IMG/VR virus record: IMGVR_UViG_3300006001_000012
Direction: 5' to 3' (one strand)
Length of the DNA stretch: 64,000 nt
Source: a virus
Below, piece after piece: positions 11,441-30,526 of this stretch. Numbering within the stretch: position 1 is the stretch's first letter; every line of letters begins with the position of its first letter. A program made the position numbers and the translations under genes. The notes under the pieces are model-generated. The model ran no database searches. It saw only the letters and a list, made by a program, of their open reading frames with translations, and was not told the DNA's origin.

Positions 11441-14400
11441 ATGGGAAGATTAGGAGACGATATAAAACTGGGATTTTTAGAAAATCTAAGATCCGCAGAA
11501 GAAATGGATCCAGAAATGGCGGCAAAAGATTATGCCACCTATGAAAGTCTCAGAAGAAGATTGCTTGCGGAAGGAATAGATATCAGAACATACAAAAAAC
11601 CTGCGGAGGAGGAATATGAAGATGCAACAGAAACAACAGAAACTCCTGTTTCTCCTCCTTCGGTAGTTTCTACTCCTTCGGTAGTTTCTACTCCTTCGGT
11701 AGTTTCTACTCCTTCTTCTGTAATTGCTGATACTGTTCGTACTCCTATGCCTCCTGATCTTCCTCCTGCCAGAAAAGAGGACGGGACGGAACTTACTCAA
11801 CAAGAAAAAGAACAGTGGTATAAAGAGAATGAAACAGCAGGAGGAAAAAAACTAACAAAAGAAGAAAAAGAAAAACAAAAAAAGATAAAAGAAATAGAAA
11901 AAACGCCTGCGTATCTGATATATGCAAATAATGTTCGTAAAGCTGCCATTGAAGAACAATTAAAAGAAACTGCGCTTTATAAAGAAAAAATAAAAGGTCT
12001 TGAACCTAATGAAATAATGGCATCAGGTGAATTAGAAGATTTAGTACTTAAACAAAAAGTAGAACCTGAACTTCCAGACAGATATAGAGAAGTTATCAGA
12101 AGAATACACAGCATAGAAGCTAGTTCAAAGGCGCTTAACAATCAAAATACAGCGGAAAAAGATTATGACGAAGCCAAAGGATTCTTGTCTAATGCAGGCA
12201 ATTTAATCGCTTATAAATGGTATGACTGGACTACTCGCGACAATACTACTTCTGGAATGAGTCCGAAAGTAGCAAAAGAATATCGCGAATTATTGAAGGA
12301 AAGAGATAAACTTTTAAAACCTGTCGCACATGACCACATGGAGAAATTCAATGCCAAAAAAGATCCTATGGTCGCATATCAAAAACAACCTTTTTATAAG
12401 GTAGAAGGAAATTATAAGTACCGTACTACCCGCATAGGAACAATAGTAAAAACGGAAGAATATTATCGTGTTCCAAAATCAGAAGTGGCAAGTCAAGAAG
12501 AAGCTAATTCATTGTCCAAAGAAGCATTGGAAAAGTATCGCAAAAAATATGACGACAACGAAATATTAATTGAAAAAATAGACGATGCTTCCCAAAGATT
12601 GAAAGATTATATAAATGACGAAGGATTATATGCGGGATTCATGAGTCAAAAAAAACAATGGCTGACGGGAGGTCTTTACGGATTGAAAGAATTATCGGAA
12701 AGCGCAGGCATTGCTTATAAAGCCAGAAAAAAAGGATGGGACAGTCTTACGGACTATGAAAAAGAAGTGCTGGAAATAGAACAATTGAAGCAGGGAGTAC
12801 AGCATTTGGATATGGGGAAAAATAATTTTATGTATGCGCTGGGAGAAGGATTCGCGGTATCTATTCCTCTTATACAACAAATTTTATTGACTGCGGGAAC
12901 AGGCACTTCTTTAGCCGCAGGAGTTTCTGCGATTTCAGGACTCGGTCGCAGAATAGCTCAACAATCATTGAGAAACGCCGCAGAGGCTTCTATCAGAACT
13001 TTGTTTAGATCAATAACCATAGGAGCAGCCAATATAACCAGAAGTCAAGGTTGGAGGATGCTCGGTTTAAGAGGCATAGAAAAAGGAATAATAAATCCTT
13101 TGGTTAATATAGGCACTCAAACCGCGCTTTCTCCTTTTAGTTATTCCAGAGCCGCAGAAAGATATATCGGTCCCTTGCAATATGTAGAAGACGAAAACGG
13201 AAAAGGACAAATTTTGCTTACCGAGAACATGAGACTGTCTTTTTTACAGCAAGGCAAAGCAGAACTAATAAAATTAGAAAATCAATTTGACGAAGTAGAA
13301 AAAATAAAAGATCCGAAAGAAAGAGAAGAAGCAGAACGCAAACTTCATTTAAGATATTTAGAATTGCGAAAACAAATAGACAGCATATACGATCCATACG
13401 GAAAAGACCCTGAACAAGTAATTAAAGAAGTAGGAATAGGAGCGGCTTTGGCTTATGGATGGGGAGAAGGTTTTAAAGAATTATTTTCCGAGAGATTTGT
13501 GGGACAATGGGCTTCTGCATTAACTCGTCCCGCAGGAAGATTTTTGGGAAAAGGAATAGGAAAGGCTTGGGACATGGTTTCTAATCCTACGCTCAGAAAA
13601 GTTTTTAACGGCAAAGCATTAGGCACTCCCGCAGACGCATTAGACGAAATGAATATGTTAGCAAAGAAATTTGGCAAAGCTCGCAACGGGGCTTTTAGCA
13701 AAAATGCTTTCTTTCATATAAAACTTGGAAATCTATGGCATGGTCTGCTTCCAGAAATGGCAGAAGAAATAGCCGTATCCCTTACTCCCAGCATAGGAGC
13801 AGGATGGAGTTCAAAAGAATACGAAGAACAACTTAAAGAATTAAGAACACAGGAATTTTATGTCAATGTGCTTTCTCAAACCGCATTGATGGGAGGCACG
13901 ATGATAGGAGCAAGTTATGCGCATCATTTAGGCAATTATTATTTAAGCAAATCATATAATGAAGATTATAAGCAATTAAAAGCAGAAAAAAGGATGCTCA
14001 GAGATCTTTTTCAAGCCATAGATCAAGGAGTCGAAAATGACGAATTGGTAAAAAAGATAATGATGAGCGTAAACGATGCAACTTATTTTACGCAAGATTA
14101 CCAAGAACAAATCAGCAAATTAAGAGCAGAGAATACTAAAGCAAGTCATGAACAAGCCAATGCGTTAGAACAAGCTCAGTTCTATAATCATGCGATTACT
14201 GCCATGAAAACGGGGCAATTAAAAGCCTTTAAAAGAAGTTTGGAAAGACAGATTGAACAGAGAAACGAAAGTACCGAAACTGAGGAGACCAAAAGAACTA
14301 TGGAAAGCGTGGTAAAGGCAATGCAGACCATTGAATATTTACAAGAAATACAAGAAAAATACGAAGAACATCCCAATCAAGGAGCATTGATTAATCTTGA

Positions 14401-17400
14401 AATTAACAGACTCCATAATAAAAGAAACATTGAAGAATTAAATAAAAATATCGATGATAAAACTAAACAAGCCGAATTAATTGCTGCCATAGAAGCGTTT
14501 AAAATAGCAGAACAGGCAAAATGGGATTCTCCAGACAATGTAGATGAAAACGGAAACAGATTAAATTTAGACAAAGACGGAAAACAAATAGAATATGAAT
14601 ATAAAGACTATGTATTAAATTTTGCCGATCTCAGCGCAAATGACATGCAGTTTCTAAGCAGTGTGATGAACGCAGGATTGGATGCAAATAACATAATAAG
14701 TTCCATGATGTTCAGAGATATGAATCAAGGAATGATAAATGAATATCAAATGCAGATTGCGGCAGGGGCAAACGAAAAGGTAATTAAACAAGTAAGAGCA
14801 CAGGAATTAAAAGAACAAAAAGAACAGATAGATAACAGTAAAGATATAAAAGCATTACAGCAAATTGTCGATTCTTTGATTATTACCGATGATAAATTAA
14901 AAGCTCTTGCACAGGCTAAAATCAATAAATTAAACGGAATTGCTCAGATTACAGGAAGCGCGGATACTGCATGGAAAGCAGTACATCGCAATTCTAATCA
15001 AGGGTTAGTTGATCCCGAAGCAAAGGGATTAATGGACGAAATAGGAAAAAATAAAAATCAACCTAAGCCTGAACAACCTAAACACGGCAGTCCTAAAAAT
15101 CCTTCTGGAAGGCAAACTCAGACTCAGCAAGAAGAAACTCCTCAGACTCCTTCTAAACCTTATAAATCATCAAAAGCAAGACAATTGATGAATCGTCTTA
15201 ATGATCAACCAAGCAAGAGAGCCGATGTTGAAAGATTAGAAGCAGAAGTGGCTAGTCATAGAATAGTTTTTGGAAATGAAACAAAAGAAGAAAGAAAAAT
15301 AAGAGAGGCTAAATTAAACGAATATGAAAAACAATTAAACGTAGCCAGAGCTATATTAACAGGCATAAATAATGAAATAGAAAAAATACTGCAAGAAAGA
15401 ATAAAAGAAATTAAAGAAAGGATAGCTCAGGAAAGATATATTAGAAAATCATTGATAGTCAATAAAAAGCAAAAAGTAAAATACGAAAGAGATTTAGCCA
15501 AACTAAACAATAAAAAGAAATTAACGCCAACAGAAGAAAAACAGAAGAAACAACTTACAGAAGATATTAAATCGCTTAACAAAAGCATAAATGAAGATAT
15601 AAAAAGATTAAACGAACTTGAAATCTTGAACCGACATGACAAGCAACGCATAACGCAAAATCAACTTACTAAAACAAATACAAAATTTAAAGGAAAAGAT
15701 TTTAAGAAGTTAGTGATGGGAGGCATATTCTGGGGATACAGACATCGTTTTAATGCTTCGACATTATCTGGCGGTTCAGTAGATCAGTTAAATGATCTTA
15801 TTGAAACCATAGAGGAAGTGCTTAAAAAAATGGATGCGCACAAAAGAAAAAAAGGAGGAAAAGAAAATGGAACAAGGCAAGAACAGAGAAAGAATATGCT
15901 TCAATGGCTAGAAGCCGCAAAACATAATTTACAAATACATGAAGAAATTCTTGAAGAAAGCATTGTATTGACTAATACCGCAGATATAGTAGAAACAGAA
16001 GAAGATCAAAAAAAGATAGTAACGCTAAAAAATAAAATAGAAGCAAGCGAAAGACTTCTCAAAATAAAAGAAGAAAAAAGAGACAATTTTGGCGAAGCTG
16101 ATACTAAAAAGAAAAAAATACAATTAGAAGCAATTAACACTGACATCAATACTTATGAAACAAATTTAGAAGGATATAGAAAAGAATTGGCAGAACTTGA
16201 ATTTGAGGTAGAAAATGAATTACGGAGACAACGCGGAGAAGAACTTTTAGAACGAGAAATTCCTCAAGCAAAAGAAGAAAAACAAGAACAAGAACAAGAA
16301 CAAGAAGAAAACGAACTTTCTGAATCTGAAAAACAAGATAAACTAGAATCTTTAAAAAAGGAACTAGAAAGATTAGACGCAGAAATAGATCATCTTTCTA
16401 AACAGGGTACTGAACTTAAAGAAAAACGAATAGAATTAGAAAGTAAAATAGCATTAGAAAGCAGATCAGAAAAAGCAACAGATGAAGCAGAAAGAGCAAA
16501 AGAAATAGAAGAGATTGAAAAATTAAAAAAAGAAATAGATGACTTATATGATAAAGAATGGGAGAGTTCACGTCAAAGAGCTGATATTGAAAAAGAAATT
16601 CAGGATTTAGAAGAGGGAGAATTAGAAAAACCAGAAAAATCAAAGGATCGTTTAATCAATGAAGCCAGAAACCGCTTATTTACTAAAAATAGAGATTTAA
16701 GATCGAATAAAAGAACTCTGCAAAGACTTCATAGAACAGGAGGAGCTGAAAAAACAATAAAATATTTTGAAGGGGAAATTGAAAAAGATGAAGCAGAAAT
16801 TATAGCTATTGAAAAAGAATTAAAAGACCTTGAAAATAGGACTCAATCTGTTCCTCAACAGGAAAATCAACAAGAGAATCAGCAAGAACAAAATCAAGAA
16901 CAAAATCAAGAGACTCCTGAAACAGAACAAGAGCGAGAGCAAAACCAAGAAGAACAAAAGAGACAAAAGGAACGAGAGAAAAAACAATCTGAAATAGATT
17001 CTTTAAGAAAAGAGTATGAAGAATTAGATGCAAAAGAGGAAGTAAATCGCAACGAAATTAAAAAACTTGAAGAAGAAAAGAAAAAATTAAGCGAAATTGA
17101 AAATAAAGACGAAAGGAAGAAGAAAGAAGAAAAATTACAAAAAACCATAGATGAATTAAAAGAAAAAAATAAGGATATTCTTTTTAATATAGTAAGCATT
17201 GAAAATAAACTTCAAGAACTGCATAAAGAAAACTTTAAAGATGAAGCAGGACAATCTGGCAATCCTTTAATTGATGATGCCAAATATCGTTTAATGGTAA
17301 AAAAAGAAGAACTTAAAAGAATTAAAAGATATTTACAAAGAGCGCAAAAAAGAGGAGATGGTATAGCAAAAACTTTTGAAGAACAAATTAAAGATACTGT

Positions 17401-20400
17401 TGCTGAAATTACAGCTATTGAAAAAGAATTGCAGGAGCTTGGTGCTGTCGCAGAAAAACAAAACCAACAGGAAACTCCTCCTGTTACGCAACAGACTCAG
17501 CCTGCTCCTAAAGCTGCTCCTCCTGCTACAACCAGAGAAGGCAAGATAAAAGAATTAGAGAAGTTGGATGATCAGATAGCAGAGCTTGAAATACAGTACA
17601 ATTTAGCTCAAGGAGAAGCAGACGGAGCTGACAATTCGTTGAATTTTTATGACAGACAAGAAAACAAAGGAACAAAAGAATTACATTCAGAAAAAATAAA
17701 AAAATTAGAAAAATTAAAAGAAGAAAAAGAAAAGATTGCAAATGATTTGGCAAACCAGTTGCACTCGTTGCAAGAAAAAAGAGACGCTTTGGAAGAAGAA
17801 CTTTATACAGAAGAATTTGGAGCGGAAGAAGCTCCGTTTAAAGAACATGACGACTTCAAAACAAATGAACTTCAAAAAGAATTACAGAAGTCGAGAGAAA
17901 TGATAAAAAATTTGAGAAAAAAACTTGCCAGAAATTTAAGAGAAGCAAAAAAGATAAAGGAAAGATTTGATAAACAAGATGATATAAAACAAAAAGCAGT
18001 CGAAGCAAATACTGCCAATCATTACTATACGCAAAGTTATATTTCTCCCGAAGAACACGCAAAACAAAGACAAGAGACAGAAGAACGAATAGCAAAACTT
18101 GAAAAAAGAATTGCCGAAATAGAAAAAACATTAAATATTTCTAAAGAAACTTCTAAAACTGAAACTACTAAGACAGAAGAACAAAAACAACCTGTTCAGT
18201 TAGATCCTAAAACAGAAGCAAAAAAGAAAAAATATGAAGAAGAACTTGCAGCATTGCAAGCACAACTTAATAAAGAGAAAGATCCCCGCAAGATCGCAAA
18301 ACTCAAAATAGCAATCAAAGATACAACATCTTTAATTGACGGACTGGGAAAGAAAGTTCCTGTTGTGCAACCGCAGTTAGAACGCGAACATGAAGAACCG
18401 ATTCCTGAAAATAATGAAGAAGATAACGAAGAAACTCCTGCTGATGAAACTAACACTGATGACACTCCTGTTAAAGAACTTAATCCTGACGAATTTTATC
18501 TCAGTCCTCAAACCGAAGGATTAAGTCCAGAAGACGAAGCATTAAGAAATAAGACATTGCCTGTCGTAGATAAACTTAAAGAAGTTGCGGAATTAGAAGG
18601 AAAAACTGCTCCTACATTTGATGATTATATCAAATATATGCAAATGCAGTATCTTAAATTACGAGGAAAAGCAGGATTAGAAGAGATGGAAACATTTTTC
18701 ATGTCTTTTGCAAAAGCATGGAAATTGGCAGGAATGACTTTTAAAGAAGGTGAGATCATGGCTGCGCATAAAAATAACTTTGCCAATATATTAGCAGAAA
18801 AAGCAAAAATCCAACAACAACAAACACAGCAACAAACACAGCAGACTTCTAATCCGCAAATGGTAAATGCGCAGAATCAGGCTACCAATACGAAGGCGCA
18901 ACAAACGACAAAAGAATTAGTAAATCCCAATAAACCAGGAGATCAAACTGCGAAAGGACAAGTAAAAAAAGCAGAGGAGGACAAAAGGTCTAAATCCGAA
19001 GAAATAAAGTTGCCTGTGTACGGAGAAGTAACGGAAAGAACAGGCACTAAAAAATTTAATCTGGTACAAAGGGCATGGCAGGTAGTAAAAGCTATCGGAA
19101 ATCATTTTATTTTTGACAGTAATTTTGCTTCTATCGCGGAACGGGAAGCAATAGACAATCCTCAATCCCTTACCGCAAGACAATATGACGATGACGATTA
19201 TATAATGCCCAGCGGATATTCTGACGTTACCAATTTAACTCTTATTGACAGAAATGAACAAGCGCAAACGCCTTTAATAATAGACAAGAAAGGAGTTACG
19301 TGGGGAGAGGCTAAAGCCAAAGCACAACAAATTTATCAAGGTGACTTATATCAACAATGGTTTGATCAGTTTGTTCCCATGCGAGTAGTATATGCAGGGA
19401 AAATGAACAGAACAAGAAATGAACAAGGAGAAGAGGTACAGGGAGAAGATGCAATTTCCATAGTACGCAATCATGAGTTTTACAGAGATCAGCATGAATC
19501 GGTGGCAGCAGGAGGAGAAGAAGCGGCAAGGAAAACAAGAGCATTGAGAAGGACTGTGGGAAGAACCGAAGAAAAAAGACTTCCTATACGATTTAAAAAC
19601 AGATCTTACGGAACTTGGAGAAGTCTTGCAGATCAATATGAAACCGTAACGGACGCAAACGGAGGACAGAAACTGCAACGCAAATTCCCTATTGAAAATA
19701 TAGGAGAAAAGGGGGTTTCTGTGGAATTGGTATTGGTACGCAGATTTAAAGACGGGACGGTTAAATATGAAACCGCAGACAAAAAACCTTTTGAGAAAGC
19801 ATTGCTTACTTCTTTAAGACCAGGACTTAATGCGGGAAATAAATCGGTAGAAACAGGCGAAAGCAACGTGAGTACGGTTATCATGGTACATGCTTATACC
19901 GATTCGGCTGGAAAACAATATTATGTTCCGATTACGGTAATGACTCAACAGCAAGAGGACGGAAAGTTCAGGTTACAGGAGGAAGTATTGAATACCGTTA
20001 AATATTCAGTTCTGGCGGGCATGATGGCGCGTGTGCAAAAAATGGCAAACATCGAAGCAGAAAATAACGAAGCATTGCGCAAGAAGAATCCAAATATGAA
20101 AACAGAAAATCTTCCTTCAACGGCAAAAAACATGATGGAATCTTTAATTAAATTATTTGAAGAAAAGTACGGAATTAAAAAATCACAACTTGACGCGATC
20201 GCAAAAAGCATTAAAGACGGAGGATTGTCAATTAATACAGAGGACGGATTAACGGAATACATAGAAAGTTTTTGTAAAAATCCCGTTGAGGGACAAGAAC
20301 ATGCCGTCAGAGCAATGGTAAAATATTTTACGGACGAATTAAACAATATACAAAATGCTTTAATTAAAAATAAAGACTCAAAGCAAATTGATCCGATTAT

Positions 20401-23400
20401 TAATTCGGGTTTGGAAGCGTTTTCAAATATGTTTAATAAAGTGATGGGAGAAAAAGGAAGTTTCAGAGACAAATTCAAAGTTCGTTTCAACTTAAAATCA
20501 GCTTTAAATAAAAATAAAGTTACCGTAATAGACAAAGACGGAAACGTAAAACCCGATAAAAAAAGCTACAATGACACCATGCTTGATTTCTATTATACGG
20601 AAATCGCATTGACTCCCATAGACACCATTGACGGAGAGAAAAAATTAGCGGTGGACGTATCTCCTCACATCGAGTTGGATTATACGGAGGACGGAATGGA
20701 AGAAGCTCCTTCCGAAACTCCTCCTGCGCAAGGACAACAACAGGGCTTTAAAATGCAGACGCCAGATCCTATTCCTGAAACAGAAGATGCTCCTGAAAAA
20801 GAGGAGAAAGAGGAGAAAGAGGAGAAAAAAGAAGAAAAAGAGGAAAAGAAGGAAGAGAAAAAAGAAGAGAAAAAGGAAGAGAAAAAAGAAGAGAAAAAGG
20901 AAGAAAAAGCTCCCGTAGCAGAAAGCAAACATACAACCAATGCCCGATGGATGGGATTGGCTCATCTTGCTTGGTCAAGAGAAAGCATAAATAATCTGAT
21001 ACAAAAGATTGCGCAGGAAGGAATGACGTTACAGCAATTTTTTGAATTAGGCACAAAAGGAAAGAGAGCGGTTTGGAGAAGTAAATTCAAATTAACCGAT
21101 GATCGAATAAAGGATTTAGAAAAAATCAATTCTAAAGCCGTATTGAAAAAAAATGAGGCAATGTCCGAGAGGTTGGAAAAAGAAGGAGTAGAAATAATAT
21201 CGATTACCGATGCTAAATCTTATCCTCAGTCATTAATAGAAAAGTTAGGGAAAGCAAAAGCGCCTACAATCCTTTATATAAAAGGAAATAAAGCTATTCT
21301 TCAAAAAGGAGCAATTACCATAGTAGGCTCAAGAGATGTTTCGCCCAGAGGTTTGAATTTTGCGCGTCATGTGGCAGGGCTTGTCGTAAAAGCAGGAAAA
21401 GCAGTAGTAAGCGGATTTGCAGACGGAACAGACAAAGCGGCTGCCATTGCAGCTTTAAACAACGGAGGTCAGAGTATAGCCGTGCTCCCTCAAGGAATAT
21501 TGACTTATGGAAAAGACAAAGATTTTGATTTTGACAGCCATGTAACAAAGGACGGAAATTTAGTAATGGTCAGCGAGTTTCCTCCCGAAAAGAAACGGAC
21601 AAGGGATATGGTTATGCAAAGAAACGCTACTGTATATGCGTTGGGAGAAGAGGTATTTGTAGGAGAATCTGTTAAAAAAGGAGATACATGGAAAGGCGCG
21701 TTGGAATGGTTAAAAAGAGGCAGTCAGATGAGGATTCATGTACTTAAACCTGCTACTGAAAAAGAAAAAACTGCCAATCAAGATCTTATTGACATAAAAG
21801 AAGGAGTTATTGCAGTAGATCCAGAAATGAATAAATTGCCTGTGCATACTGCCAGACAGATAACCAGAGAAGAAGAACTTCAATTAAAACAAGAAGAAGA
21901 AAACAGAAAAAAACAAGAACAAAAAACTAAGACAGAACAAGAATTGGAAAAACTCGCGCAAGAGGTAAATACAAAATTTATAAAGGACGGAAAGACTCCG
22001 CAGGAAGCTGCCGCGCTTACGGATAAAATGGTGGCAGGACAAAGAAATGCCATAACGGAAGAAGAGAAAGCAGAAAGAGAGAAAAAGAAAAAAGAAGAGT
22101 TGAAAAACAATCCGAAACAGGTAAGCGGACTGACTATTGAAGAACAGCAGATACTTCTTAATTCCATTAAACATAAAATTGCGTTGGAACTTGCTAAGTT
22201 GTTTCCTGCCAATTTTAACAAAGAAAATATCAAGAGAATAATACAAGAACAAATACAAGCCGTATTGAATAAAGGAATAGCGGATATAAGCAAGATATCA
22301 GGCGCGCTTGGTTCTATAAATACCAAAATGGCGAAAGACAATGTTCAAACCCAAAAAGATCTTTTGGAAAAATGGCAATCCGCTTTAGAGGAATATTCTA
22401 AATTAGAAAGCGAACTTCTTTCTTATTGGTCTAAGTTTACAGCCGTAGATTTAAGCACGGAAGAAGAAACGGGAAATGAAGAGATGGGAGACAAGAACGA
22501 AGCCTACGGCAAAAGTTCATTTGAGAAGAATATCATGCTTTCCTTTAGCAATCAAATGAAATTATTGTTTTACGGGATAGTGAGCACGCATCCTGGCACG
22601 GGCAGAGCAAGAGTCAATTCCATGAACATAGAACAATACGTGTCTCCCGAAGAAGCCTATGCCAAAGTATTGGACGTAACCACAAGCGTAGATTCTAATT
22701 GGACTGCCATATTAACGGAATTTAATAAAAGATATAACACCGTAAAAAGAAAGGCCATAGACGAAGAAGGCAACGAATATGAAATAGGAAACGAAATCTA
22801 TAAAGAACTTCTGACCAGAGTAAAAACTTTACAACTTTCTCAAAACAAAAGATTGAGAAACGAAATGCTTTATAAAATGTCAGCCAAGAAACTGACCATG
22901 CACAAATTGGTGATTGATTTCGGAAAAAGGGCTACGGACAAAAAAGGAAAATTTATTCAATTTAACGGAAAACCCGTATATAAGAGCGCGGGCATACAGG
23001 TATTAGACGAAAACAGCAATAAATCTTTAATTAAAATTAAAAGAAAAATCGTTAATTCTTTTGTAGAAAACTTTGGCATCAACGACAACGGAAAAACTAT
23101 TTTGAATAAACAATTTGTTCAAGAAAGACTTGCAGAAATAGAAACGATATTAGATACGAAAATCAAAACCGATCCTGTTATGATTAAAACTTTATTGGAT
23201 AAAATAGGTTTTGGAAACATCAGCGAATTGGCAATAGATCAATTCATAAGCAATCCGAACGGAAACAAAGATTTTCAACTGTACGGAGACGCGGGATTGA
23301 TTACGCTGCTTAATAAAAATTTGAGAAAATTGATGGAAAAGGCAAAAAATAATCCGAAATTTGAAATAAACAACGAGGACAATACAATCAATATTTTAAA

Positions 23401-26400
23401 AGACATCAATACTCCTTTAAACGCATTGGTGAGGCTGGAGACAGACATTAATTATGTCTTATTGGGAAGCAGCATGTATGTAGCGGGAAAGACCGTAAAC
23501 AGCACGACACAGCCTTCTGCGATAGAAGATTTTATTTATCGCTTGATGACAGAACCTGAATTGGCAGAATCCCTGACAAATGCAGAATACTCCAAAGACA
23601 ATTATATATTGAAATTTTTACAGGACGAAGATTTTGTAGAAGCTCTTAAAAAACTTCCCATTCCTTCTTTGGAAGCTCTGCGCGAAAAAGGAAATGACAA
23701 TAATACGGACTCGGAATACGGAAAACTCTCTGCCGCAAAGCACATGCAGTTGATGTTGAATTTATTTATGCACACGCATGTAAATAAAATCGGATCCCCA
23801 GAAGGCATGGGAGGTCTTAAATTCAGAATGGTGCAACAGCCTTTGATCACGGGAAGCAATAAAGGCAAAACGGTGTATATGCCCGTGCCCGTCATTGACT
23901 TTGCCAAAGAACATATTGAGTTATTGAGCACGGGAGGTTTATATATAGACGATGCAATCATAGAATTTTTGACAAAACAAATATTTGACACGGAACTAAA
24001 TCGCATTATACAATCTTATCAAAGAGAGACTCCTTCTTCTTACGCAAATTATGACAATGCGTCCAAACTCTTTTACAACGTATCTTCTTTTAATCATATA
24101 GAGATTGAAATATCGGATGAAAACAGAACTAAAAAAATGATGAACATCCATGAAATTCTTCATGAAGGAGCAGGAGTATTAAAAGCAGAAGTGAGAGACG
24201 AATTAGTTAAAGCCGCGCATATAAAATTAAAAAAATACATAGAAAACGAAACCAATGAAAAAATCAGAAAAAATGAAAAAGGAGAAACAGAAGGACAGTT
24301 GGTAGATAACGGATTTTTTAATCCTGATCCCGAATCAGAATATCCCATACAAGGATTGAATACGGGATATATGGGAAGAAACAATCTCAGTCATTTAGAG
24401 ACCTCTTATGACAAGATGCGTTTTGTAATGGCTGATTTTGTCATCAATAACCTTTTGACTCAGGTTTCCAAACAACAAATTATATTCAGCGACGTGGCTT
24501 TTTATTCTAAAGCCAAGTTGCCTTATACGACAACAAACGGAATTACGGAAATAGACGCGACAAAAGTAAGAAGTCAGGAATTTTTGAATGAGGTTACGGA
24601 GGCTTCCGCTTATACTTTGCAGAAGAGAGCGGTCAATGCCGCAGCTTCTGGAAACAAACTGGCGGACTGCGACAATCCCGCAAGCGAATATTCCAAAGAA
24701 TTTACGCATATCCTGCTTCAAGACGAAATAAGCGAATCTTCTATCTTGGGAAATCTTGCCGAAACCTATAAAGGAAGAGAACTTACGCAAGAAGAAAAAT
24801 CAGCATTGCAGAGATTAAATGAATTAAAAAACTCTTTAACTGAAAACGAGAAGATAACAAGAGAAGGAAATACAGAAGAAGTCAAAGCCGCAGAACAACA
24901 AATTAAAAAAATCAAATCTGAAAGAGACGGTCTGATAGAAACTTATTTTGCGGACATCAAACCTTATTTCAGAATTACGGGCACGGATTCTCAGCAGTAT
25001 GTAACTTGGCAGTTCTATCTGGAAATGCTTGAAAGAAAAGGAGAAATTTCTTCGCAAGAGAGACAACTTTTAATCAGAAAAATAGAATCGGGAGTCGATA
25101 ACGAACTTACGCAAGAACAGTTGGAAAGCATCATGAAGTTTACCATGAACCCCGCGAAACCCGTGTATTCGCAGAATGTCATGGAAAACGGAGTGCTCAG
25201 ACCCGTGTACATCAAATCTTCTTTCTTTCCTCTGCTTCCTCAGCTTACCAAAGGAATGAAGCTGGATAAATTGAGATTGACTATGGAAAAATTAGAAAGC
25301 GAGAAAAGTCAGTCAGGTTCTTATGTGCCCGCAATGGCTTCTTATCAATCCAGTTTTAAGGTAGGAGCTAAGAGCACCGCAGTACGCATGGAAGACGTCT
25401 ATAACTATGACATAGAAAACAATGATACTTCTGGACTTGCGGGATTAACCGAGTCTCTGAGCACTCTTCCCATGAGCGGATTTAAAATTCAACAGGAGTC
25501 TCCTTCCAAAGAAAAACATGCCTACGAAAGCGAAAGAGACGCACGCATCAGAATGGCTAGTCAGTTCTTCAAAATATTGATGGGCAATTTTATCAGCAAC
25601 GGAAAAACCCGATCTTTCCCTAATCTTTTTGACAAAGAACATTTAAAGGAATTGGGCATTGAATACAATGAATATTTAACGGGAGAAGAATTAAGCAAAC
25701 TTCAAGACCATATTTATTTTAAATACTATGACCTTTTGAGAGCAGACTTAGAAGAAAGCATGGGAATGAAAATTGACAGTAATTTTGACAGTTTAGACGA
25801 AAACCAACAAAAAGCGGTCATTGAAAAATTGCAAACTATCATGCTTGAGGAAATCAGGGTCAGAGGGTATCCTGATTATTTAAAAGACTCGGTACAATTA
25901 ATGGAGGATAAATACGGAAACTTGACCATGACGTTTCCTCCCATATTTGACACCAACAGAAACAAGTTTGAAAATTTGTTAAAAGCATTTATCGCCAACA
26001 GACTCATCAACAATAAACTTCCTGGCAACTCTCACGTATTGGGTTCTTCCGAAGGATTTGTTCCCTTTGACAATATAAGAAAGGAAAGAGAAAAATTGAT
26101 AGAACAAAATAAACTTGACAAAAATCTCAGAACGCCTGAAATCAAGGGTATAGATTTGCATAGAATCGTGCGAGACAGCGATTATATTCTCAGTACGATA
26201 AAGAAAATTGAATCGCAAAACAAAATATCCAGTAAGGACAATGATGCCATACAAATATTAAAAAGCAATTTGGCAACGCTTGAAAATATTAAAAAACAAA
26301 CGGCAAAAAAATCTTCTTTTGAAGGAATGTCGGCAGAGCAAAAATCCAAGATAGTATGGCTCAATGAAGATCATAACGGAGAACTTCGTTCTTCTTATGT

Positions 26401-29400
26401 AGAATACGACAACGGGGAAAAGAAGATAGTAAAGTCTCAGATTTTAATTAAATCTCATTTTAAATACAGAGACAGAGAAACGGGGGAATATAAATATGTG
26501 GATTTGACAAGCGATAAATATTCATATATAGGATATAACGGGAACAGGGTGCTCATGTTAGACAAAATAGATCCGCAACTTCTGGAAATGTTTACGTTCC
26601 GTATTCCCACCTCTGCGCATCAATCTGGAGCAATTGCGGAGATTGCGGGTTTCTTGCCTCCCGATTCCGAAGATCTGATAGTGGCTTCCAAAGAATATCT
26701 GGTGCAAATAGGAGAGGACTATGATTTTGACAAAAGGTATGTGTATAAGTCTCACTATTTCGTGGACAGAGAAGGAAACGTCAAAAAGATGAGTCGCGAC
26801 AATGTCAGAAAAGCCAGAGAAAATCCTAAACTTGCAAAAGAGATACAAATTACCGAAGATGTGATAGCAAATTTGCATGATGAAGTATTTGACATAAAAA
26901 GAGAACAAAATTCAGAAGCGGTAGAAAAAGCCGACAGATTAATGCGATCGGTATATCGTTATTTTGAAAAACAACGCATGAATGATAATTTGACTCCAGA
27001 AAAAAGAAAAGAATTAAAAGAATTTTATGACAGCGCGGAAAGCGATGTCAATGCCATTGATCAGGAACTCAAAGACGACATCAACAGAAGGATAAAAGAA
27101 ATACGAACAAAAGAGTTAGATGCCGAAAAACGCATTGAAAGATTAAAAGATTTGATGTTTGAAATAATGCGGAAAAAAAATGCGAGAACGGAAAAAATGC
27201 TTCTTGAAAATTCATTGATCGATTTCTATAAATCCGTATTCCTGACCACAGACGAAACGGTGCAGAGAAACATCATGAAATCTTTGAATACGGATGCGGC
27301 AGACGAAACAAGCCGTCTGATACATCAGAAAACGTCTCAAAAGAAAAATCCCAATATGAGCATGTTCTCCGATAATTTTCAAAGAGAACTTTTATTGAGC
27401 GGAGGGGCTTCTCAGTCAGGAGTAGGGATTTATTCCAATGCCATCGTATTTGAATCCCAATTGCAAAAACTGGGAGAAGAAGATAAATTGGTACTGTTTG
27501 CAGAAACAAATGAATTAAAAGAAAATACGGGAGAAGCCGACACTTTAAATATAGGAGGATTGATATTTGGAGGAGTATTGGGAAATAACGTGGAAACCAT
27601 AGACGGAGAAAGAAATATATCCGATGCACATGCGGAAAATCAGAATAATGCGGTAGATGACGTAAATAAACAGAACATGGGCAAAAGGCATGAGAACTCT
27701 TATACCATGCCTGTGTACGCGCTTATGGCGCATATGGGATTTGACATGTCAGAAGACGTAATCAATACCATGATGTCCGATAAAAACGGAAAGACCATAA
27801 AGAAGAAAATGCACATTCCTTCTCTGCTCATGTCTCAGCCTATCATTAAAGAATACGTGAAATTGATGGAACAAAGAAAAGGGTCGGGTTCAAGAGCTAA
27901 AGCAGAGGAAGAAACAGTGCTTCAATTATTAAAGAAATACGGAGTAATATTCCCCGAAGAGGGACCGGGAAGAGATTTTAAACCCAGATATTTCTTAGAA
28001 GATAAAACTGCAATCAAAGAATCTTACAGAGAACTGACGGGTCAAGTATTGTTTGACATGCTGGATGAAAACACGGCTATGAAATATCCGAGTCAGCAAA
28101 TGGCGGCATTGCAGTTGTTTTTTGAATTGGCGGACAAAGCCGCTCAGCTTTCTAAAATGCAACAATTGGTGAACGTGATGGGTTCTCGAAAATTAGGCAT
28201 CTCTTATTTTGAGACGCTTCAAAAAATAAATCAGCTTAACAAATTAGCCGAAGATAAAATAAACAGGAAATCCGTCATATACAATGAAACTAAATTAATA
28301 GGAGAAGTATCTGATGTGCCTGTGCCCAATGACAAAGGATATGTAAAGTTGGGAGAGTATTGGTGGAAACCTACTACTATTGAAGGCAAACTTTTGATTG
28401 ATACCCTCAGAACGGAGAATATGCTTATGCCTATACTGTTTCCTTACAATTCACATGCTTTGACTACGGTGGTAGATACCATATTGAAAAATCAGGATAT
28501 TGATCCCGCAGACGATTCTAATTACGCGATGGAAAGAAGATATGAGATTATGTCCGAATTTGTAAAATATATCAATGTTAATGCCGTATCTAAAAACAGC
28601 AATCCGAATTTTGAAAAAATGAGATTGTTCTTCAATGACAAGATAACGGGAAATAAATCGTTGGGAATGGTGCTTGCGGAATTAAGAAGAGACAAACCTG
28701 AATTGGCAAACAATGTATTTTTAAACGGATTAGAAACTACCTTCGATCCCAGAAATAACGGATATGCCATATGGAGAACCAGAGCAGACAGCGAATTTGA
28801 TCAGAATGACGAACAGAAAGCATTTTCCGATATGCTCAGAGACGACAGAGAAATAGGAGAAGTAAACGGAAGAATGATGACTATGTCGGATTTAGCGCAT
28901 GACTTAGTGCTTTATTCCTTTATGGCAGATGACAGAAACGGAGCGGTAGGATTTAAAAAGATAGTGCCCATGTCTTATCTTAATTCAACGGGCATTGCGG
29001 AAAACATGAGAACTGCTTTTGCGGAAATATCATATAACTCAGACAAATCCGATATAGACGCGCAACAATTTATCACGCAATATTTTCAACAAAATATAGA
29101 TAAATTATACAAAAGAAATTTTCAAACTTTAGAAGATTTTAAAACATACAGACGCAAAATAAAAGAGATAAACGAAAACAAAAGACCTTCGTTGGATTAT
29201 GCGATTATCAATAAACAATTATATAAAGTAACAGATACAGTTACGGGACTGGAAGAAATTCCTATATTAAGACATAACGGACTATTTAATCAATATAATG
29301 CGAATACAGAAATTCAGGAACAGGTAACCAATGTCAGAAAGATAGCAGAAACTCCGAAATATAAATTATCGGGCGAAGGAACTCCCATGCTCGGCGTTAT

Positions 29401-30526
29401 GAAAAACAATAAAGCGGTAAGCTATATAGACGCAAAGAAAGTAGATGACAGAATTAATAAGTTTACTACTATGGATGAATTGATAGGAAACATTAAATAT
29501 GAAGAACTGAGCGAACAGGAAAAAATAATATATAATCATATAAAACCTTATTTAAACCAAGTACCCATAGAATTTCAAAAGCATCTCAGAAACGGTTCTT
29601 TGGGAGCTTATAACCCTAAAACCAATGTAATAGTACTCAATGCGGATGCGTATCAAATATTGGCAAACAGGTATCAGGATTTAGAAATTGTTAAAAAGAG
29701 ATTCAGAGAACTGATATTTGAAGAAGCCTTACATTCCATTACCGTAAATCAATTAAAAGAATTTATCGAAGTAGATAAGGATACCAGACAAATTACGGGA
29801 TTTAAAACAAAACCAGAAAAACTTCCTTCTTTTGTAACTACTATCGTAGCCATGTTTGAAATGGCAAGAACGGCAGTACCTCACGATAAAAATGATTTAT
29901 CCACTTATTATTCTAAAGACGTATTTGAATTTATAGCGGGCATGTTTGTATCCGAAGATTATCGCAAAAGATTAGAGGACAGCCGTTCTGGTTTCTTAGA
30001 ACAATTTGCAAGAGGGATAGTAAGAGTATTCCAACATCTGTTCAACATTGAATCAAAGAAAGAAACAGGACAAACGAAACCAGAAGAAAAATATAAAAAT
30101 GAGTTTTATGCAGCCGTAAAACAATTAATTGTCAAAAGCAATATCCAGGACATAAAAAGGACTGCTCCCGACATAAAAGACAATTATGAAGTCGATAAAA
30201 CCAATGAAGTCGATAAAACTCCTGATATTGCGGGAAATCAGGAAACACGGTCAGAAACAGAAGCAGAAATAGAAACGCCCGATGAAGCCATAGACAATGA
30301 CATATTAGGCATATTTAAAGGTATTCCCAGCGCAAGTTCTGGAATTGAAAAAACACAAGACGATTTTGATATGGACGATACCGTAAAAGACATTAATATA
30401 TTGGAAGATGCTCCCGAAATGAAATCTGACAACGATGAAATTCATGAAAGTCCCATGAAAGAAGAAAGAGTAAGAGAATTGACAATGGAAGATTTAGAAG
30501 AAATGCCCGTACTAAAATGCTCATAA
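11441..30526 (+). CDS. Giant multidomain virion RNA polymerase (crAss-like two-barrel RNAP) with DprA-like and zincin-like domains
   Basis: Uninterrupted 6361-aa ORF. FRIPTSAHQS is followed by the metal-binding DxDxD motif in QIGEDYDFDK (26717-26731). TDSQQY and KPVY...YIKSS segments lie upstream. Long coiled coils and hydrophobic segments occur near the N-terminus. Confidence 0.85.
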   Translation: MGRLGDDIKLGFLENLRSAEEMDPEMAAKDYATYESLRRRLLAEGIDIRTYKKPAEEEYEDATETTETPVSPPSVVSTPSVVSTPSVVSTPSSVIADTVRTPMPPDLPPARKEDGTELTQQEKEQWYKENETAGGKKLTKEEKEKQKKIKEIEKTPAYLIYANNVRKAAIEEQLKETALYKEKIKGLEPNEIMASGELEDLVLKQKVEPELPDRYREVIRRIHSIEASSKALNNQNTAEKDYDEAKGFLSNAGNLIAYKWYDWTTRDNTTSGMSPKVAKEYRELLKERDKLLKPVAHDHMEKFNAKKDPMVAYQKQPFYKVEGNYKYRTTRIGTIVKTEEYYRVPKSEVASQEEANSLSKEALEKYRKKYDDNEILIEKIDDASQRLKDYINDEGLYAGFMSQKKQWLTGGLYGLKELSESAGIAYKARKKGWDSLTDYEKEVLEIEQLKQGVQHLDMGKNNFMYALGEGFAVSIPLIQQILLTAGTGTSLAAGVSAISGLGRRIAQQSLRNAAEASIRTLFRSITIGAANITRSQGWRMLGLRGIEKGIINPLVNIGTQTALSPFSYSRAAERYIGPLQYVEDENGKGQILLTENMRLSFLQQGKAELIKLENQFDEVEKIKDPKEREEAERKLHLRYLELRKQIDSIYDPYGKDPEQVIKEVGIGAALAYGWGEGFKELFSERFVGQWASALTRPAGRFLGKGIGKAWDMVSNPTLRKVFNGKALGTPADALDEMNMLAKKFGKARNGAFSKNAFFHIKLGNLWHGLLPEMAEEIAVSLTPSIGAGWSSKEYEEQLKELRTQEFYVNVLSQTALMGGTMIGASYAHHLGNYYLSKSYNEDYKQLKAEKRMLRDLFQAIDQGVENDELVKKIMMSVNDATYFTQDYQEQISKLRAENTKASHEQANALEQAQFYNHAITAMKTGQLKAFKRSLERQIEQRNESTETEETKRTMESVVKAMQTIEYLQEIQEKYEEHPNQGALINLEINRLHNKRNIEELNKNIDDKTKQAELIAAIEAFKIAEQAKWDSPDNVDENGNRLNLDKDGKQIEYEYKDYVLNFADLSANDMQFLSSVMNAGLDANNIISSMMFRDMNQGMINEYQMQIAAGANEKVIKQVRAQELKEQKEQIDNSKDIKALQQIVDSLIITDDKLKALAQAKINKLNGIAQITGSADTAWKAVHRNSNQGLVDPEAKGLMDEIGKNKNQPKPEQPKHGSPKNPSGRQTQTQQEETPQTPSKPYKSSKARQLMNRLNDQPSKRADVERLEAEVASHRIVFGNETKEERKIREAKLNEYEKQLNVARAILTGINNEIEKILQERIKEIKERIAQERYIRKSLIVNKKQKVKYERDLAKLNNKKKLTPTEEKQKKQLTEDIKSLNKSINEDIKRLNELEILNRHDKQRITQNQLTKTNTKFKGKDFKKLVMGGIFWGYRHRFNASTLSGGSVDQLNDLIETIEEVLKKMDAHKRKKGGKENGTRQEQRKNMLQWLEAAKHNLQIHEEILEESIVLTNTADIVETEEDQKKIVTLKNKIEASERLLKIKEEKRDNFGEADTKKKKIQLEAINTDINTYETNLEGYRKELAELEFEVENELRRQRGEELLEREIPQAKEEKQEQEQEQEENELSESEKQDKLESLKKELERLDAEIDHLSKQGTELKEKRIELESKIALESRSEKATDEAERAKEIEEIEKLKKEIDDLYDKEWESSRQRADIEKEIQDLEEGELEKPEKSKDRLINEARNRLFTKNRDLRSNKRTLQRLHRTGGAEKTIKYFEGEIEKDEAEIIAIEKELKDLENRTQSVPQQENQQENQQEQNQEQNQETPETEQEREQNQEEQKRQKEREKKQSEIDSLRKEYEELDAKEEVNRNEIKKLEEEKKKLSEIENKDERKKKEEKLQKTIDELKEKNKDILFNIVSIENKLQELHKENFKDEAGQSGNPLIDDAKYRLMVKKEELKRIKRYLQRAQKRGDGIAKTFEEQIKDTVAEITAIEKELQELGAVAEKQNQQETPPVTQQTQPAPKAAPPATTREGKIKELEKLDDQIAELEIQYNLAQGEADGADNSLNFYDRQENKGTKELHSEKIKKLEKLKEEKEKIANDLANQLHSLQEKRDALEEELYTEEFGAEEAPFKEHDDFKTNELQKELQKSREMIKNLRKKLARNLREAKKIKERFDKQDDIKQKAVEANTANHYYTQSYISPEEHAKQRQETEERIAKLEKRIAEIEKTLNISKETSKTETTKTEEQKQPVQLDPKTEAKKKKYEEELAALQAQLNKEKDPRKIAKLKIAIKDTTSLIDGLGKKVPVVQPQLEREHEEPIPENNEEDNEETPADETNTDDTPVKELNPDEFYLSPQTEGLSPEDEALRNKTLPVVDKLKEVAELEGKTAPTFDDYIKYMQMQYLKLRGKAGLEEMETFFMSFAKAWKLAGMTFKEGEIMAAHKNNFANILAEKAKIQQQQTQQQTQQTSNPQMVNAQNQATNTKAQQTTKELVNPNKPGDQTAKGQVKKAEEDKRSKSEEIKLPVYGEVTERTGTKKFNLVQRAWQVVKAIGNHFIFDSNFASIAEREAIDNPQSLTARQYDDDDYIMPSGYSDVTNLTLIDRNEQAQTPLIIDKKGVTWGEAKAKAQQIYQGDLYQQWFDQFVPMRVVYAGKMNRTRNEQGEEVQGEDAISIVRNHEFYRDQHESVAAGGEEAARKTRALRRTVGRTEEKRLPIRFKNRSYGTWRSLADQYETVTDANGGQKLQRKFPIENIGEKGVSVELVLVRRFKDGTVKYETADKKPFEKALLTSLRPGLNAGNKSVETGESNVSTVIMVHAYTDSAGKQYYVPITVMTQQQEDGKFRLQEEVLNTVKYSVLAGMMARVQKMANIEAENNEALRKKNPNMKTENLPSTAKNMMESLIKLFEEKYGIKKSQLDAIAKSIKDGGLSINTEDGLTEYIESFCKNPVEGQEHAVRAMVKYFTDELNNIQNALIKNKDSKQIDPIINSGLEAFSNMFNKVMGEKGSFRDKFKVRFNLKSALNKNKVTVIDKDGNVKPDKKSYNDTMLDFYYTEIALTPIDTIDGEKKLAVDVSPHIELDYTEDGMEEAPSETPPAQGQQQGFKMQTPDPIPETEDAPEKEEKEEKEEKKEEKEEKKEEKKEEKKEEKKEEKKEEKAPVAESKHTTNARWMGLAHLAWSRESINNLIQKIAQEGMTLQQFFELGTKGKRAVWRSKFKLTDDRIKDLEKINSKAVLKKNEAMSERLEKEGVEIISITDAKSYPQSLIEKLGKAKAPTILYIKGNKAILQKGAITIVGSRDVSPRGLNFARHVAGLVVKAGKAVVSGFADGTDKAAAIAALNNGGQSIAVLPQGILTYGKDKDFDFDSHVTKDGNLVMVSEFPPEKKRTRDMVMQRNATVYALGEEVFVGESVKKGDTWKGALEWLKRGSQMRIHVLKPATEKEKTANQDLIDIKEGVIAVDPEMNKLPVHTARQITREEELQLKQEEENRKKQEQKTKTEQELEKLAQEVNTKFIKDGKTPQEAAALTDKMVAGQRNAITEEEKAEREKKKKEELKNNPKQVSGLTIEEQQILLNSIKHKIALELAKLFPANFNKENIKRIIQEQIQAVLNKGIADISKISGALGSINTKMAKDNVQTQKDLLEKWQSALEEYSKLESELLSYWSKFTAVDLSTEEETGNEEMGDKNEAYGKSSFEKNIMLSFSNQMKLLFYGIVSTHPGTGRARVNSMNIEQYVSPEEAYAKVLDVTTSVDSNWTAILTEFNKRYNTVKRKAIDEEGNEYEIGNEIYKELLTRVKTLQLSQNKRLRNEMLYKMSAKKLTMHKLVIDFGKRATDKKGKFIQFNGKPVYKSAGIQVLDENSNKSLIKIKRKIVNSFVENFGINDNGKTILNKQFVQERLAEIETILDTKIKTDPVMIKTLLDKIGFGNISELAIDQFISNPNGNKDFQLYGDAGLITLLNKNLRKLMEKAKNNPKFEINNEDNTINILKDINTPLNALVRLETDINYVLLGSSMYVAGKTVNSTTQPSAIEDFIYRLMTEPELAESLTNAEYSKDNYILKFLQDEDFVEALKKLPIPSLEALREKGNDNNTDSEYGKLSAAKHMQLMLNLFMHTHVNKIGSPEGMGGLKFRMVQQPLITGSNKGKTVYMPVPVIDFAKEHIELLSTGGLYIDDAIIEFLTKQIFDTELNRIIQSYQRETPSSYANYDNASKLFYNVSSFNHIEIEISDENRTKKMMNIHEILHEGAGVLKAEVRDELVKAAHIKLKKYIENETNEKIRKNEKGETEGQLVDNGFFNPDPESEYPIQGLNTGYMGRNNLSHLETSYDKMRFVMADFVINNLLTQVSKQQIIFSDVAFYSKAKLPYTTTNGITEIDATKVRSQEFLNEVTEASAYTLQKRAVNAAASGNKLADCDNPASEYSKEFTHILLQDEISESSILGNLAETYKGRELTQEEKSALQRLNELKNSLTENEKITREGNTEEVKAAEQQIKKIKSERDGLIETYFADIKPYFRITGTDSQQYVTWQFYLEMLERKGEISSQERQLLIRKIESGVDNELTQEQLESIMKFTMNPAKPVYSQNVMENGVLRPVYIKSSFFPLLPQLTKGMKLDKLRLTMEKLESEKSQSGSYVPAMASYQSSFKVGAKSTAVRMEDVYNYDIENNDTSGLAGLTESLSTLPMSGFKIQQESPSKEKHAYESERDARIRMASQFFKILMGNFISNGKTRSFPNLFDKEHLKELGIEYNEYLTGEELSKLQDHIYFKYYDLLRADLEESMGMKIDSNFDSLDENQQKAVIEKLQTIMLEEIRVRGYPDYLKDSVQLMEDKYGNLTMTFPPIFDTNRNKFENLLKAFIANRLINNKLPGNSHVLGSSEGFVPFDNIRKEREKLIEQNKLDKNLRTPEIKGIDLHRIVRDSDYILSTIKKIESQNKISSKDNDAIQILKSNLATLENIKKQTAKKSSFEGMSAEQKSKIVWLNEDHNGELRSSYVEYDNGEKKIVKSQILIKSHFKYRDRETGEYKYVDLTSDKYSYIGYNGNRVLMLDKIDPQLLEMFTFRIPTSAHQSGAIAEIAGFLPPDSEDLIVASKEYLVQIGEDYDFDKRYVYKSHYFVDREGNVKKMSRDNVRKARENPKLAKEIQITEDVIANLHDEVFDIKREQNSEAVEKADRLMRSVYRYFEKQRMNDNLTPEKRKELKEFYDSAESDVNAIDQELKDDINRRIKEIRTKELDAEKRIERLKDLMFEIMRKKNARTEKMLLENSLIDFYKSVFLTTDETVQRNIMKSLNTDAADETSRLIHQKTSQKKNPNMSMFSDNFQRELLLSGGASQSGVGIYSNAIVFESQLQKLGEEDKLVLFAETNELKENTGEADTLNIGGLIFGGVLGNNVETIDGERNISDAHAENQNNAVDDVNKQNMGKRHENSYTMPVYALMAHMGFDMSEDVINTMMSDKNGKTIKKKMHIPSLLMSQPIIKEYVKLMEQRKGSGSRAKAEEETVLQLLKKYGVIFPEEGPGRDFKPRYFLEDKTAIKESYRELTGQVLFDMLDENTAMKYPSQQMAALQLFFELADKAAQLSKMQQLVNVMGSRKLGISYFETLQKINQLNKLAEDKINRKSVIYNETKLIGEVSDVPVPNDKGYVKLGEYWWKPTTIEGKLLIDTLRTENMLMPILFPYNSHALTTVVDTILKNQDIDPADDSNYAMERRYEIMSEFVKYINVNAVSKNSNPNFEKMRLFFNDKITGNKSLGMVLAELRRDKPELANNVFLNGLETTFDPRNNGYAIWRTRADSEFDQNDEQKAFSDMLRDDREIGEVNGRMMTMSDLAHDLVLYSFMADDRNGAVGFKKIVPMSYLNSTGIAENMRTAFAEISYNSDKSDIDAQQFITQYFQQNIDKLYKRNFQTLEDFKTYRRKIKEINENKRPSLDYAIINKQLYKVTDTVTGLEEIPILRHNGLFNQYNANTEIQEQVTNVRKIAETPKYKLSGEGTPMLGVMKNNKAVSYIDAKKVDDRINKFTTMDELIGNIKYEELSEQEKIIYNHIKPYLNQVPIEFQKHLRNGSLGAYNPKTNVIVLNADAYQILANRYQDLEIVKKRFRELIFEEALHSITVNQLKEFIEVDKDTRQITGFKTKPEKLPSFVTTIVAMFEMARTAVPHDKNDLSTYYSKDVFEFIAGMFVSEDYRKRLEDSRSGFLEQFARGIVRVFQHLFNIESKKETGQTKPEEKYKNEFYAAVKQLIVKSNIQDIKRTAPDIKDNYEVDKTNEVDKTPDIAGNQETRSETEAEIETPDEAIDNDILGIFKGIPSASSGIEKTQDDFDMDDTVKDINILEDAPEMKSDNDEIHESPMKEERVRELTMEDLEEMPVLKCS
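11655..11715 (+). repeat. 18-bp tandem repeat (about 3.4 copies, PSVVST) in the vRNAP N-terminus
   Basis: ccttcggtagtttctact occurs three times perfectly, plus a partial copy. Confidence 0.95.
20795..20909 (+). repeat. Purine-rich EKE/EKKE low-complexity tandem repeat (linker before the DprA domain)
   Basis: 9-nt and 12-nt units encode EKEEKEEKEEKKEEKEEKKEEKKEEKKEEKKEEKKEEK. Confidence 0.9.
20939..21820 (+). other. DprA/Smf (SLOG superfamily) domain embedded in the vRNAP ORF
   Basis: YPQSL...APTILYIKGN...ITIVGSR...VVSGFADGTDKAAAIAAL...SIAVLPQG...VSEFPP...QRN..VYAL...VGES..KGDTW.GA matches the canonical DprA motif series. Confidence 0.9.
29560..29950 (+). other. Zincin-like metallopeptidase (MPTase-type) domain with variant EEALH motif in the vRNAP ORF
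   Basis: LGAYNPKTNVIVLN...LIFEEALHSIT (29720-29734)...DVFEFIAGMF shows zincin architecture, with the first His of HExxH replaced by Glu. Confidence 0.65.

Follow-up and report, generated by a model that had tools for sequence, protein, structure and literature searches.

A PsyrA/RqlI-type DprA-like domain within the giant virion RNA polymerase polyprotein of a crassvirus-like genome

The window, that is, the whole 64,000-nucleotide stretch analysed (IMG/VR record IMGVR_UViG_3300006001_000012), is a crassvirus-like genome segment. Genes for a ring protein, a muzzle protein, an 852-aa protein and a 762-aa protein are followed by a 6361-aa ORF and a 2249-aa ORF, and the ring and muzzle genes match the Pfam families CrAss_Ring_1 (E 2.5e-43) and crAss_MUZ (E 3.4e-45). 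The 6361-codon ORF has no internal stop. Its product, P0001, matches the virion structural protein family phrog_16227 (E 1e-89) and aligns with Fpv3 gp32, with phi14:2 gp077 (the DFDID polymerase) and with L081, the closest polymerase found. A DYDFD motif lies in the region homologous to phi14:2 gp66; blastp around this motif gave E 1e-10 against gp077, and a phmmer search against PDB sequences gave no match. The DxDxD motif in this region and the crassvirus context place P0001 among the crAss-like virion RNA polymerases. An earlier note on this DNA had described a full DprA-family domain, including the N-terminal helical part (20939..21820, residues 3167-3460), inside a giant crAss-like polymerase polyprotein. 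The ORF, the Pfam profile and a structural model bear out the domain, and the DYDFD motif, the phi14:2 and Fpv3 alignments and the ring and muzzle neighbours bear out its setting. The parts of the polyprotein are as follows:

11441..30526, + strand: crAss-like virion RNA polymerase polyprotein P0001, 6361 aa (ORF, profiles, alignments)
18974..20725, + strand: conserved block 5' of the insert, residues 2512-3095, common to four relatives (alignments)
20726..20923, + strand: linker 5' of the domain, proline-rich and then E/K-repeat (composition)
20924..21832, + strand: PsyrA/RqlI-type DprA-like domain, residues 3162-3464 (PADLOC, alignment, model, trees)
21833..21994, + strand: charged, probably helical spacer from the domain to the polymerase part (composition)
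21995..30151, + strand: polymerase and C-terminal part, residues 3519-6237, 41-46% identical to L081 (alignment)
26717..26731, + strand: DYDFD catalytic-type motif, residues 5093-5097 (aligned with phi14:2 DFDID and Fpv3 DYDID)

Several other features of the window were recorded. An 18-bp tandem repeat (11648-11715, + strand; 3.8 copies, 98% matches) encodes a Ser/Thr/Pro-rich stretch near the N-terminus of the polyprotein. A zincin-like motif (29720-29734, + strand; residues 6094-6098 of P0001) reads E-E-x-x-H, not H-E-x-x-H. In the 35 related loci described below, 29 have the E form, five (Fpv-type) the H form, and one is cut short; E-E-x-x-H represents a conserved variant or an inactive protease, in proteins said to be self-cleaving. 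The 2249-aa ORF 3' of the polymerase (30528-37277, + strand) has no match in Pfam, PHROG or NCBIfam, and its residues 301-368 show a weak PD-(D/E)XK match (E 7e-5). A ThiF/E1-like gene (43284-45207, - strand; Pfam ThiF E 7e-17, weak PADLOC CBASS E1-E2 matches) adjoins a gene with a weak Prok-JAB match (E 9e-4, below cut-off), and the pair is a possible ubiquitin-like conjugation module of the phage. An RNA ligase with a PHA02142 OB-fold domain (59611-60657, - strand) is a possible RNA-repair counter-defence gene.

PsyrTA (also known as RqlHI) and ShosTA are reported as phage defence systems that pair a DprA-like antitoxin with a PRTase toxin (10.1101/2022.05.11.491447). The domain in P0001 scores 118.8 bits against Pfam DNA_processg_A (PF02481; E 2.4e-34, model positions 2-204 of 212, gathering cut-off 29.6); the score over the whole model and the G-S-R and V-M-Q-R-N motifs make it a member of this family. 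Against PADLOC profiles it scores 186 bits with PsyrA and 120 with ShosA. Its score against TIGR00732 dprA is 98.4 bits, below the equivalog cut-off of 191.15, and that against LDcluster4 is 23.1 bits, under the cut-off of 26.3, which leaves it outside the LOG / LDcluster4 SLOG families. The best four of 32 protein matches reach 159-186 bits, and canonical-type matches 54 bits at most. Five genomes carry both paralogues, and in each of them the toxin-linked copy is the closer one, matching the domain at 174-181 bits as against 24-51 for the competence DprA. The closest bacterial relatives are about 40% identical to the domain. Pfam matches to PhdYeFM (E 0.0066) and GDPD (E 0.083) fell below cut-off and were rejected.

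Quick trees of 57 and 42 rows placed the domain within the Bacteroidota-type PsyrA clade (SH-aLRT 95 and 98, respectively), and in the latter canonical DprA was set apart at SH-aLRT 100. The branch of the domain is long (1.2) and basal to the PsyrA clade. A constraint grouping the domain with canonical DprA was rejected modestly (p-AU 0.0225, 24 rows). The TIGR score, the paralogue scores and the separate clade rule out competence DprA as the identity of the domain. The best profile, the tree placement and the presence of both the N-terminal region and the DprA core make it PsyrA/RqlI-type, and the insert extends from the equivalent of the antitoxin N-terminus to the end of the Rossmann core, without the C-terminal HTH. 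The domain descends from the PsyrA/RqlI antitoxin paralogue, not from competence DprA. Of the earlier claims, capture of a cellular gene stands; the donor is PsyrA and not canonical DprA, as profiles, paralogue scores, toxin linkage and trees indicate.

The toxin linkage was examined in cellular relatives. In GTDB genomes 506 relatives were found and the best 80 were used, a set biased in that the search patterns were derived from PsyrA-like matches. A PRTase-domain gene lies directly upstream in 74 of these 80 loci, 63 of them with a single helicase-PRTase ORF; the other six have a helicase only (1), neither gene (2) or a contig edge (3). Thirteen upstream ORFs were searched with PADLOC, and five matched PsyrT over its full length (860-870 bits), six matched its PRTase end only, and two gave nothing at 1e-10. 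Six loci (L010, L016, L026, L041, L073 and L077) have PsyrA genes behind ORFs of 386-553 aa that match only this PRTase end and are variant or broken toxins. As a check free of the pattern bias, 301 phylum genomes, among them the centre genome, were searched at E 1e-25: nine match the domain, with a PRTase gene directly upstream in 9/9. The PsyrA-type paralogue is rare, being present in 8/300 sampled phylum genomes (under 3%). PsyrT-type PRTase is absent from all frames of the window, and the domain thus has no PsyrTA operon around it there; within the window, therefore, the phage carries an antitoxin-derived domain only, not the system.

An AlphaFold2 model of 20924-21832, built on a 77-row alignment, has a mean pLDDT of 94.5 and a pTM of 0.92, and predicts an N-terminal helical domain (about residues 2-86) followed by a Rossmann core. 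The best solved folds are ShosA 8zva (E 1.5e-16, TM 0.70) and then DprA 3uqz and 3maj. LOG and Moco-carrier proteins were found at E 1e-5 to 1e-3, and LOG-type folds reach TM 0.3-0.4 as against 0.6-0.7 for ShosA and DprA. Within the domain the following features were located:

20924..21181, + strand: N-terminal helical (SAM-like) subdomain with the W-x-x-x-A-H-L-x-W motif of PsyrA type (model, alignment)
21332..21334, + strand: R3298, the arginine of G-S-R (ShosA R139, H. pylori R52) (alignments)
21509..21541, + strand: remodelled segment, domain residues 196-206, acidic in the phage and basic-aromatic in cellular PsyrA (alignments)
21620..21625, + strand: R3394-N3395, second ssDNA motif (ShosA R234; H. 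pylori R143, N144) (alignments)
21683..21685, + strand: Asp at the pocket glycine (H. pylori G164; domain G254D), Gly in 64/76 family members (alignments)

Residues W9, A13, H14, W17, N23, L25, F39 and F40 of the N-terminal subdomain are common to the domain and PsyrA. In ShosA, R139 and R234 are reported as essential (PMC12961424), and R52, R143 and N144 are the ssDNA residues of H. pylori DprA (PMC3950713, also the source of the motif forms). The second motif, V-M-Q-R-N, is the second-paralogue form A-M-x-R-N with Val for Ala. Equivalents of the H. pylori pocket are kept at R52, R143 and N144, with a basic residue (arginine) at K137 and an aromatic residue near Y108. The domain is a probable ssDNA binder, as the earlier note had supposed, judging by the two retained arginines, on which ShosA and H. 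pylori DprA both depend. Overall, it keeps 47 of 55 conserved columns in an alignment of 76 diverse members (family mean 0.88; 32% of members keep as few or fewer), but only 81 of the 137 near-invariant columns of 56 close Bacteroidota-type copies. The family-conserved residues that are changed are K167D, W225R, G254D, G262W, R274L and the basic-aromatic helix 196-206. The ShosA dimer residues L144, L181 and F182 align with R, N and N. The net charge of the domain is +12, and that of 56 cellular PsyrA segments averages +3.4.

The remodelled segment overlaps the RecA contacts K200 and R206 of ShosA, with uncertain register and lower pLDDT (84 and 74); in the pairwise alignment both contacts fall on Asp, and a one-residue shift puts K200 on a lysine. 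This segment bears on a reading in which the domain is a DprA-like mediator that loads host RecA on the entering phage DNA for recombination or repair. ShosA is reported to bind RecA and promote recombination (PMC12961424; PMC11961720), and both ssDNA arginines are kept in the phage domain. The descent is not from competence DprA, however, and the segment at K200/R206 is acidic in the phage and basic in PsyrA, though with the register uncertain. Crassvirus DNA, moreover, is expected to enter the cell double-stranded. We consider this mediator role improbable, and the RecA loading suggested earlier is doubtful.

The fold also bears on the sequestration of a nucleotide signal, another role suggested earlier. 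A SLOG-kind binder would soak up an immune messenger or a PRTase product. In favour are the SLOG-superfamily fold of the domain, the LOG and Moco-carrier matches to its model and the altered pocket (G254D, K167D). The motifs are DprA-type, however, the LDcluster4 score is under its cut-off and the LOG-type TM is low. With LOG/SLOG binders matching far more weakly than the antitoxins, this role is unsupported and very improbable indeed.

The distribution of the insert was surveyed in related polymerases. Related loci were found by the catalytic region and motif patterns; of 37 loci, two lacked an ORF with the motif and were left out, and the remaining 35 form 22 groups at 95% identity and 12 groups at 50%. 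The domain is absent from 35/35 of these polymerase loci. Its profile gave nothing at E 10 on 1,529 six-frame ORFs of the 37 loci, a search that recovered the window copy at E 2e-95, and Pfam identified no domain in any of 22 slot regions of related polymerases. L081, L100, L102 and L103 align on both sides of the insert; L081 has a 292-aa charged spacer at the slot, and the spacers of the other three are shorter. Where both flanks align, the slot measures about 56-292 aa in relatives. The block upstream of the insert shares 30% amino acid identity with L081 residues 470-1062 and also aligns with L100, L102 and L103; an atlas search with this block gave no match at 0.9 or more. The slot sits roughly at the start of the free-standing phi14:2 polymerase, residue 436 of which aligns with residue 3913, a boundary that has been proposed as a cleavage site of such polyproteins (10.1101/2020.03.07.982082). 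Absence from the 35 related loci marks the domain, which stands shortly before the polymerase part, as an insertion specific to one lineage. Among 15 C-terminal tails of relatives tested, two carry add-ons: a Kinase-PolyVal domain in L087 (5083-6729, - strand; E 3e-28) and an AAA_30/PIF1-like helicase in L102 (3910-5619, - strand; E 6e-24).

Beyond these loci, IMG/VR was scanned with the domain and with its alignment, and neither revealed a second phage carrying it. A tblastn search of 50,697 phage records gave only eight weak matches (28-31%), one of them to an orf adjacent to the portal gene in a P2-like phage, and the matches of a BFVD fold search were all short SLOG folds (TM 0.39 or less). 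Scans that used the region adjoining the domain as query found no relatives. Fused forms were not found among proteins, a weak blank from a collection that lacks P0001 and gave no self-hit.

Composition confirms the P/E/K-rich linker and the charged spacer noted earlier on either side of the domain. Residues 3081-3120 contain seven prolines, residues 3121-3160 are 90% E/K/Q/R, and residues 3481-3520 are 60% E/K/Q/R; the domain ends about 55 residues short of the start of polymerase homology. Positions 20880-25500 are spanned by single contigs in two of four sequencing runs examined, from two studies, with 3 and 8 letters differing. These contigs join the domain to 3.6 kb of polymerase, and either run may itself be the source of the window; the other two runs gave fragments only. 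No contig of the four runs bridges the 5' junction over the repetitive linker. Assembly chimerism, which the earlier note had named as a risk, is thus countered at the 3' junction and not across the 5' linker. Over 19000-24000, 0.95-0.98 of the sampled words are present in ten runs from four studies. Run X1 also contains a 7.6-kb contig (depth 24) from another, diverged crAss-like relative, which matches short polymerase parts at 24953-25370.

Codon use in the domain resembles that elsewhere in the gene (index 0.68, range 0.63-0.76; GC 0.39), which makes the capture an old one; this and the branch length led us to reject a recent transfer. In a further reading, the insert is a passenger or decaying relic kept as a folded spacer, or else a mis-assembly at the repetitive 5' linker. 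The single lineage, the long branch, the variable slot length and the unbridged 5' junction fit such an origin. The reading frame, however, is intact, the conservation of the core is typical of the family, and the codon use marks the insert as old yet unbroken. The only strain difference within the domain is synonymous, a weak point since it concerns one site, and the 3' junction is spanned in two studies. A relic or artefact is very improbable.

Since the donor is a PsyrA/RqlI antitoxin, a counter-defence reading opens, one absent from the earlier note. We suggest, with a little less than even confidence, that a Bacteroidota-type PsyrTA antitoxin was captured, fused ahead of the polymerase part and serves in counter-defence, holding back PsyrT. 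More tentatively, its place in an ejected polyprotein may mean that the cell receives an antidote to an abortive-infection toxin with the particle, before expression of the phage genes begins. The polymerase-associated proteins of crAss001 are reported in the particle, at an estimated ~6 copies each, and are proposed to cross the tail partly unfolded (PMC10172136), and gp66 of phi14:2 is delivered into the host, where it transcribes early genes (10.1101/2020.03.07.982082). By analogy with these two phages, the domain, as part of a polyprotein expected to be packaged, would enter the host with the particle cargo. It would then refold after ejection, if packaging, ejection and refolding proceed as in the model phages. 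The phage likely delivers a stolen antidote or an ssDNA holder into the cell along with its genome.

ShosTA is reported to fire upon decay of its unstable antitoxin after host shut-off (PMC11961720). In the same way, host shut-off would deplete an unstable cellular antitoxin and the phage copy would stand in for the one lost, being present at entry and then made again in bulk late in infection. For RqlI, the HTH is reported as dispensable and the N-terminal 84 residues as required to counter RqlH, and co-precipitation with RqlH needs the PRTase domain of the toxin (PMC4670107). ShosA binds ssDNA and RecA, and needs RecA binding and dimerisation (PMC12961424). Judged from RqlI and ShosA, binding to the PRTase domain would be a likelier mode of action for the phage domain than one that involves RecA. 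The match of the domain limits to the active RqlI fragment counts for the antitoxin reading, as does the capture of a rare paralogue rather than the common DprA, an argument that is weakened in that defence islands may be easier for phages to recombine with. There is also a reported precedent for an orphan phage antitoxin, AdfN (an orphan NADAR), which acts against DarTG1 (PMC11825919).

Other observations count against counter-defence. About six copies per particle, if the crAss001 estimate applies, would be little for a stoichiometric inhibitor at entry. PsyrA-type genes occur in under 3% of the phylum genomes sampled and the domain in one phage lineage only, its branch is long and basal, and an acidic segment lies where ShosA contacts RecA. 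A toxin gene may also lie in the genome outside the window. Should the changed residues belong to the surface that meets the toxin, a dimer partner or RecA, the domain may no longer work as an antitoxin.

In the main rival, the antitoxin role is lost and the domain is a repurposed ssDNA holder that binds melted phage DNA beside the polymerase and keeps the template open or shields the entering genome, with no RecA loading. Such a role in cis is suggested because gp66 prefers ssDNA and the domain is more basic than its cellular kin. The phi14:2 enzyme is reported to transcribe ssDNA and denatured DNA well and dsDNA poorly (10.1101/2020.03.07.982082). The domain stands only some 55 residues ahead of the polymerase homology, it keeps the H. 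pylori DprA pocket residues listed above, its net charge is +12 against a cellular mean of +3.4, and a few tethered copies would suffice in cis. On the other hand, all 35 related polymerase loci manage without the domain, Asp replaces the pocket glycine G164 and Arg stands at P135/W225, and the keeping of an antitoxin paralogue with its whole N-terminal subdomain is left unexplained. We regard this rival as rather unlikely, and the two readings, counter-defence and ssDNA holding, are not mutually exclusive.

PsyrTA and ShosTA are widespread, and their trigger and the mechanism of their antitoxins are debated between direct toxin binding (RqlI) and ssDNA and RecA (ShosA). A phage-tuned PsyrA with its core kept and a defined set of surface residues changed is a natural probe of this mechanism and a candidate counter-defence; if it does act in counter-defence, the target would be PsyrTA/ShosTA-type systems. 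If it is instead an ssDNA holder, it would illustrate one way in which ssDNA-preferring polymerases hold a melted template. The insert also adds a new, internal site to those at which crAss polymerase polyproteins are seen to carry captured defence parts. Add-on domains of injected phage proteins are a known theme (PMC5512222; PMC9503650). DprA occurs a single time in the main text of PMC5512222, and not among the domains of polyvalent proteins; the domain tables of that paper may bear on the question. The main text of PMC9503650 mentions neither DprA, Smf nor crAss. In the literature searched, which took in a minority of subscription papers, we found no phage-borne PsyrA/RqlI-type domain and no counter-defence against PsyrTA.

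Among known systems, the phage domain is most like PsyrA/RqlI, with which it shares the best profile match (186 bits), ~40% amino acid identity over the whole domain, the helical N-terminus, the A-M-x-R-N-type motif and the clade. It differs in having no adjoining toxin gene in the window and no HTH, in lying inside a 6361-aa protein, and in its changed surface residues. ShosA of ShosTA (PDB 8zva, 9vzo) is the top fold match (TM 0.70), and the equivalents of R139 and R234 are kept, whereas the identity is 19%, the dimer residues are unlike, and the phage has an acidic stretch at the RecA contacts. Competence DprA/Smf (S. pneumoniae 3uqz, H. pylori 4ljr, TIGR00732) shares the fold and the G-S-R and R-N motifs, but the phage domain is below the TIGR cut-off, belongs to another clade, and lacks the F/L/Y-x-x-R-N form and the pocket glycine. 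AdfN, as described against DarTG1 (PMC11825919), is likewise a phage-borne antitoxin homologue without the toxin; it is an enzyme and counters another system, whereas the phage domain, with a putative activity, forms part of a larger protein that is presumably packaged. With the crAss-like polymerases (phi14:2 gp66, GenBank gp077; Fpv3 gp32), P0001 shares the DxDxD motif and the gene order, following the muzzle gene and two genes of cargo size, and with these polymerases and the polyvalent proteins described in PMC5512222 it shares the fused polyprotein form and add-on domains. It differs from the crAss-like polymerases in carrying a domain found in none of the 35 related loci, and in carrying it internally, whereas the add-ons of its relatives are C-terminal.
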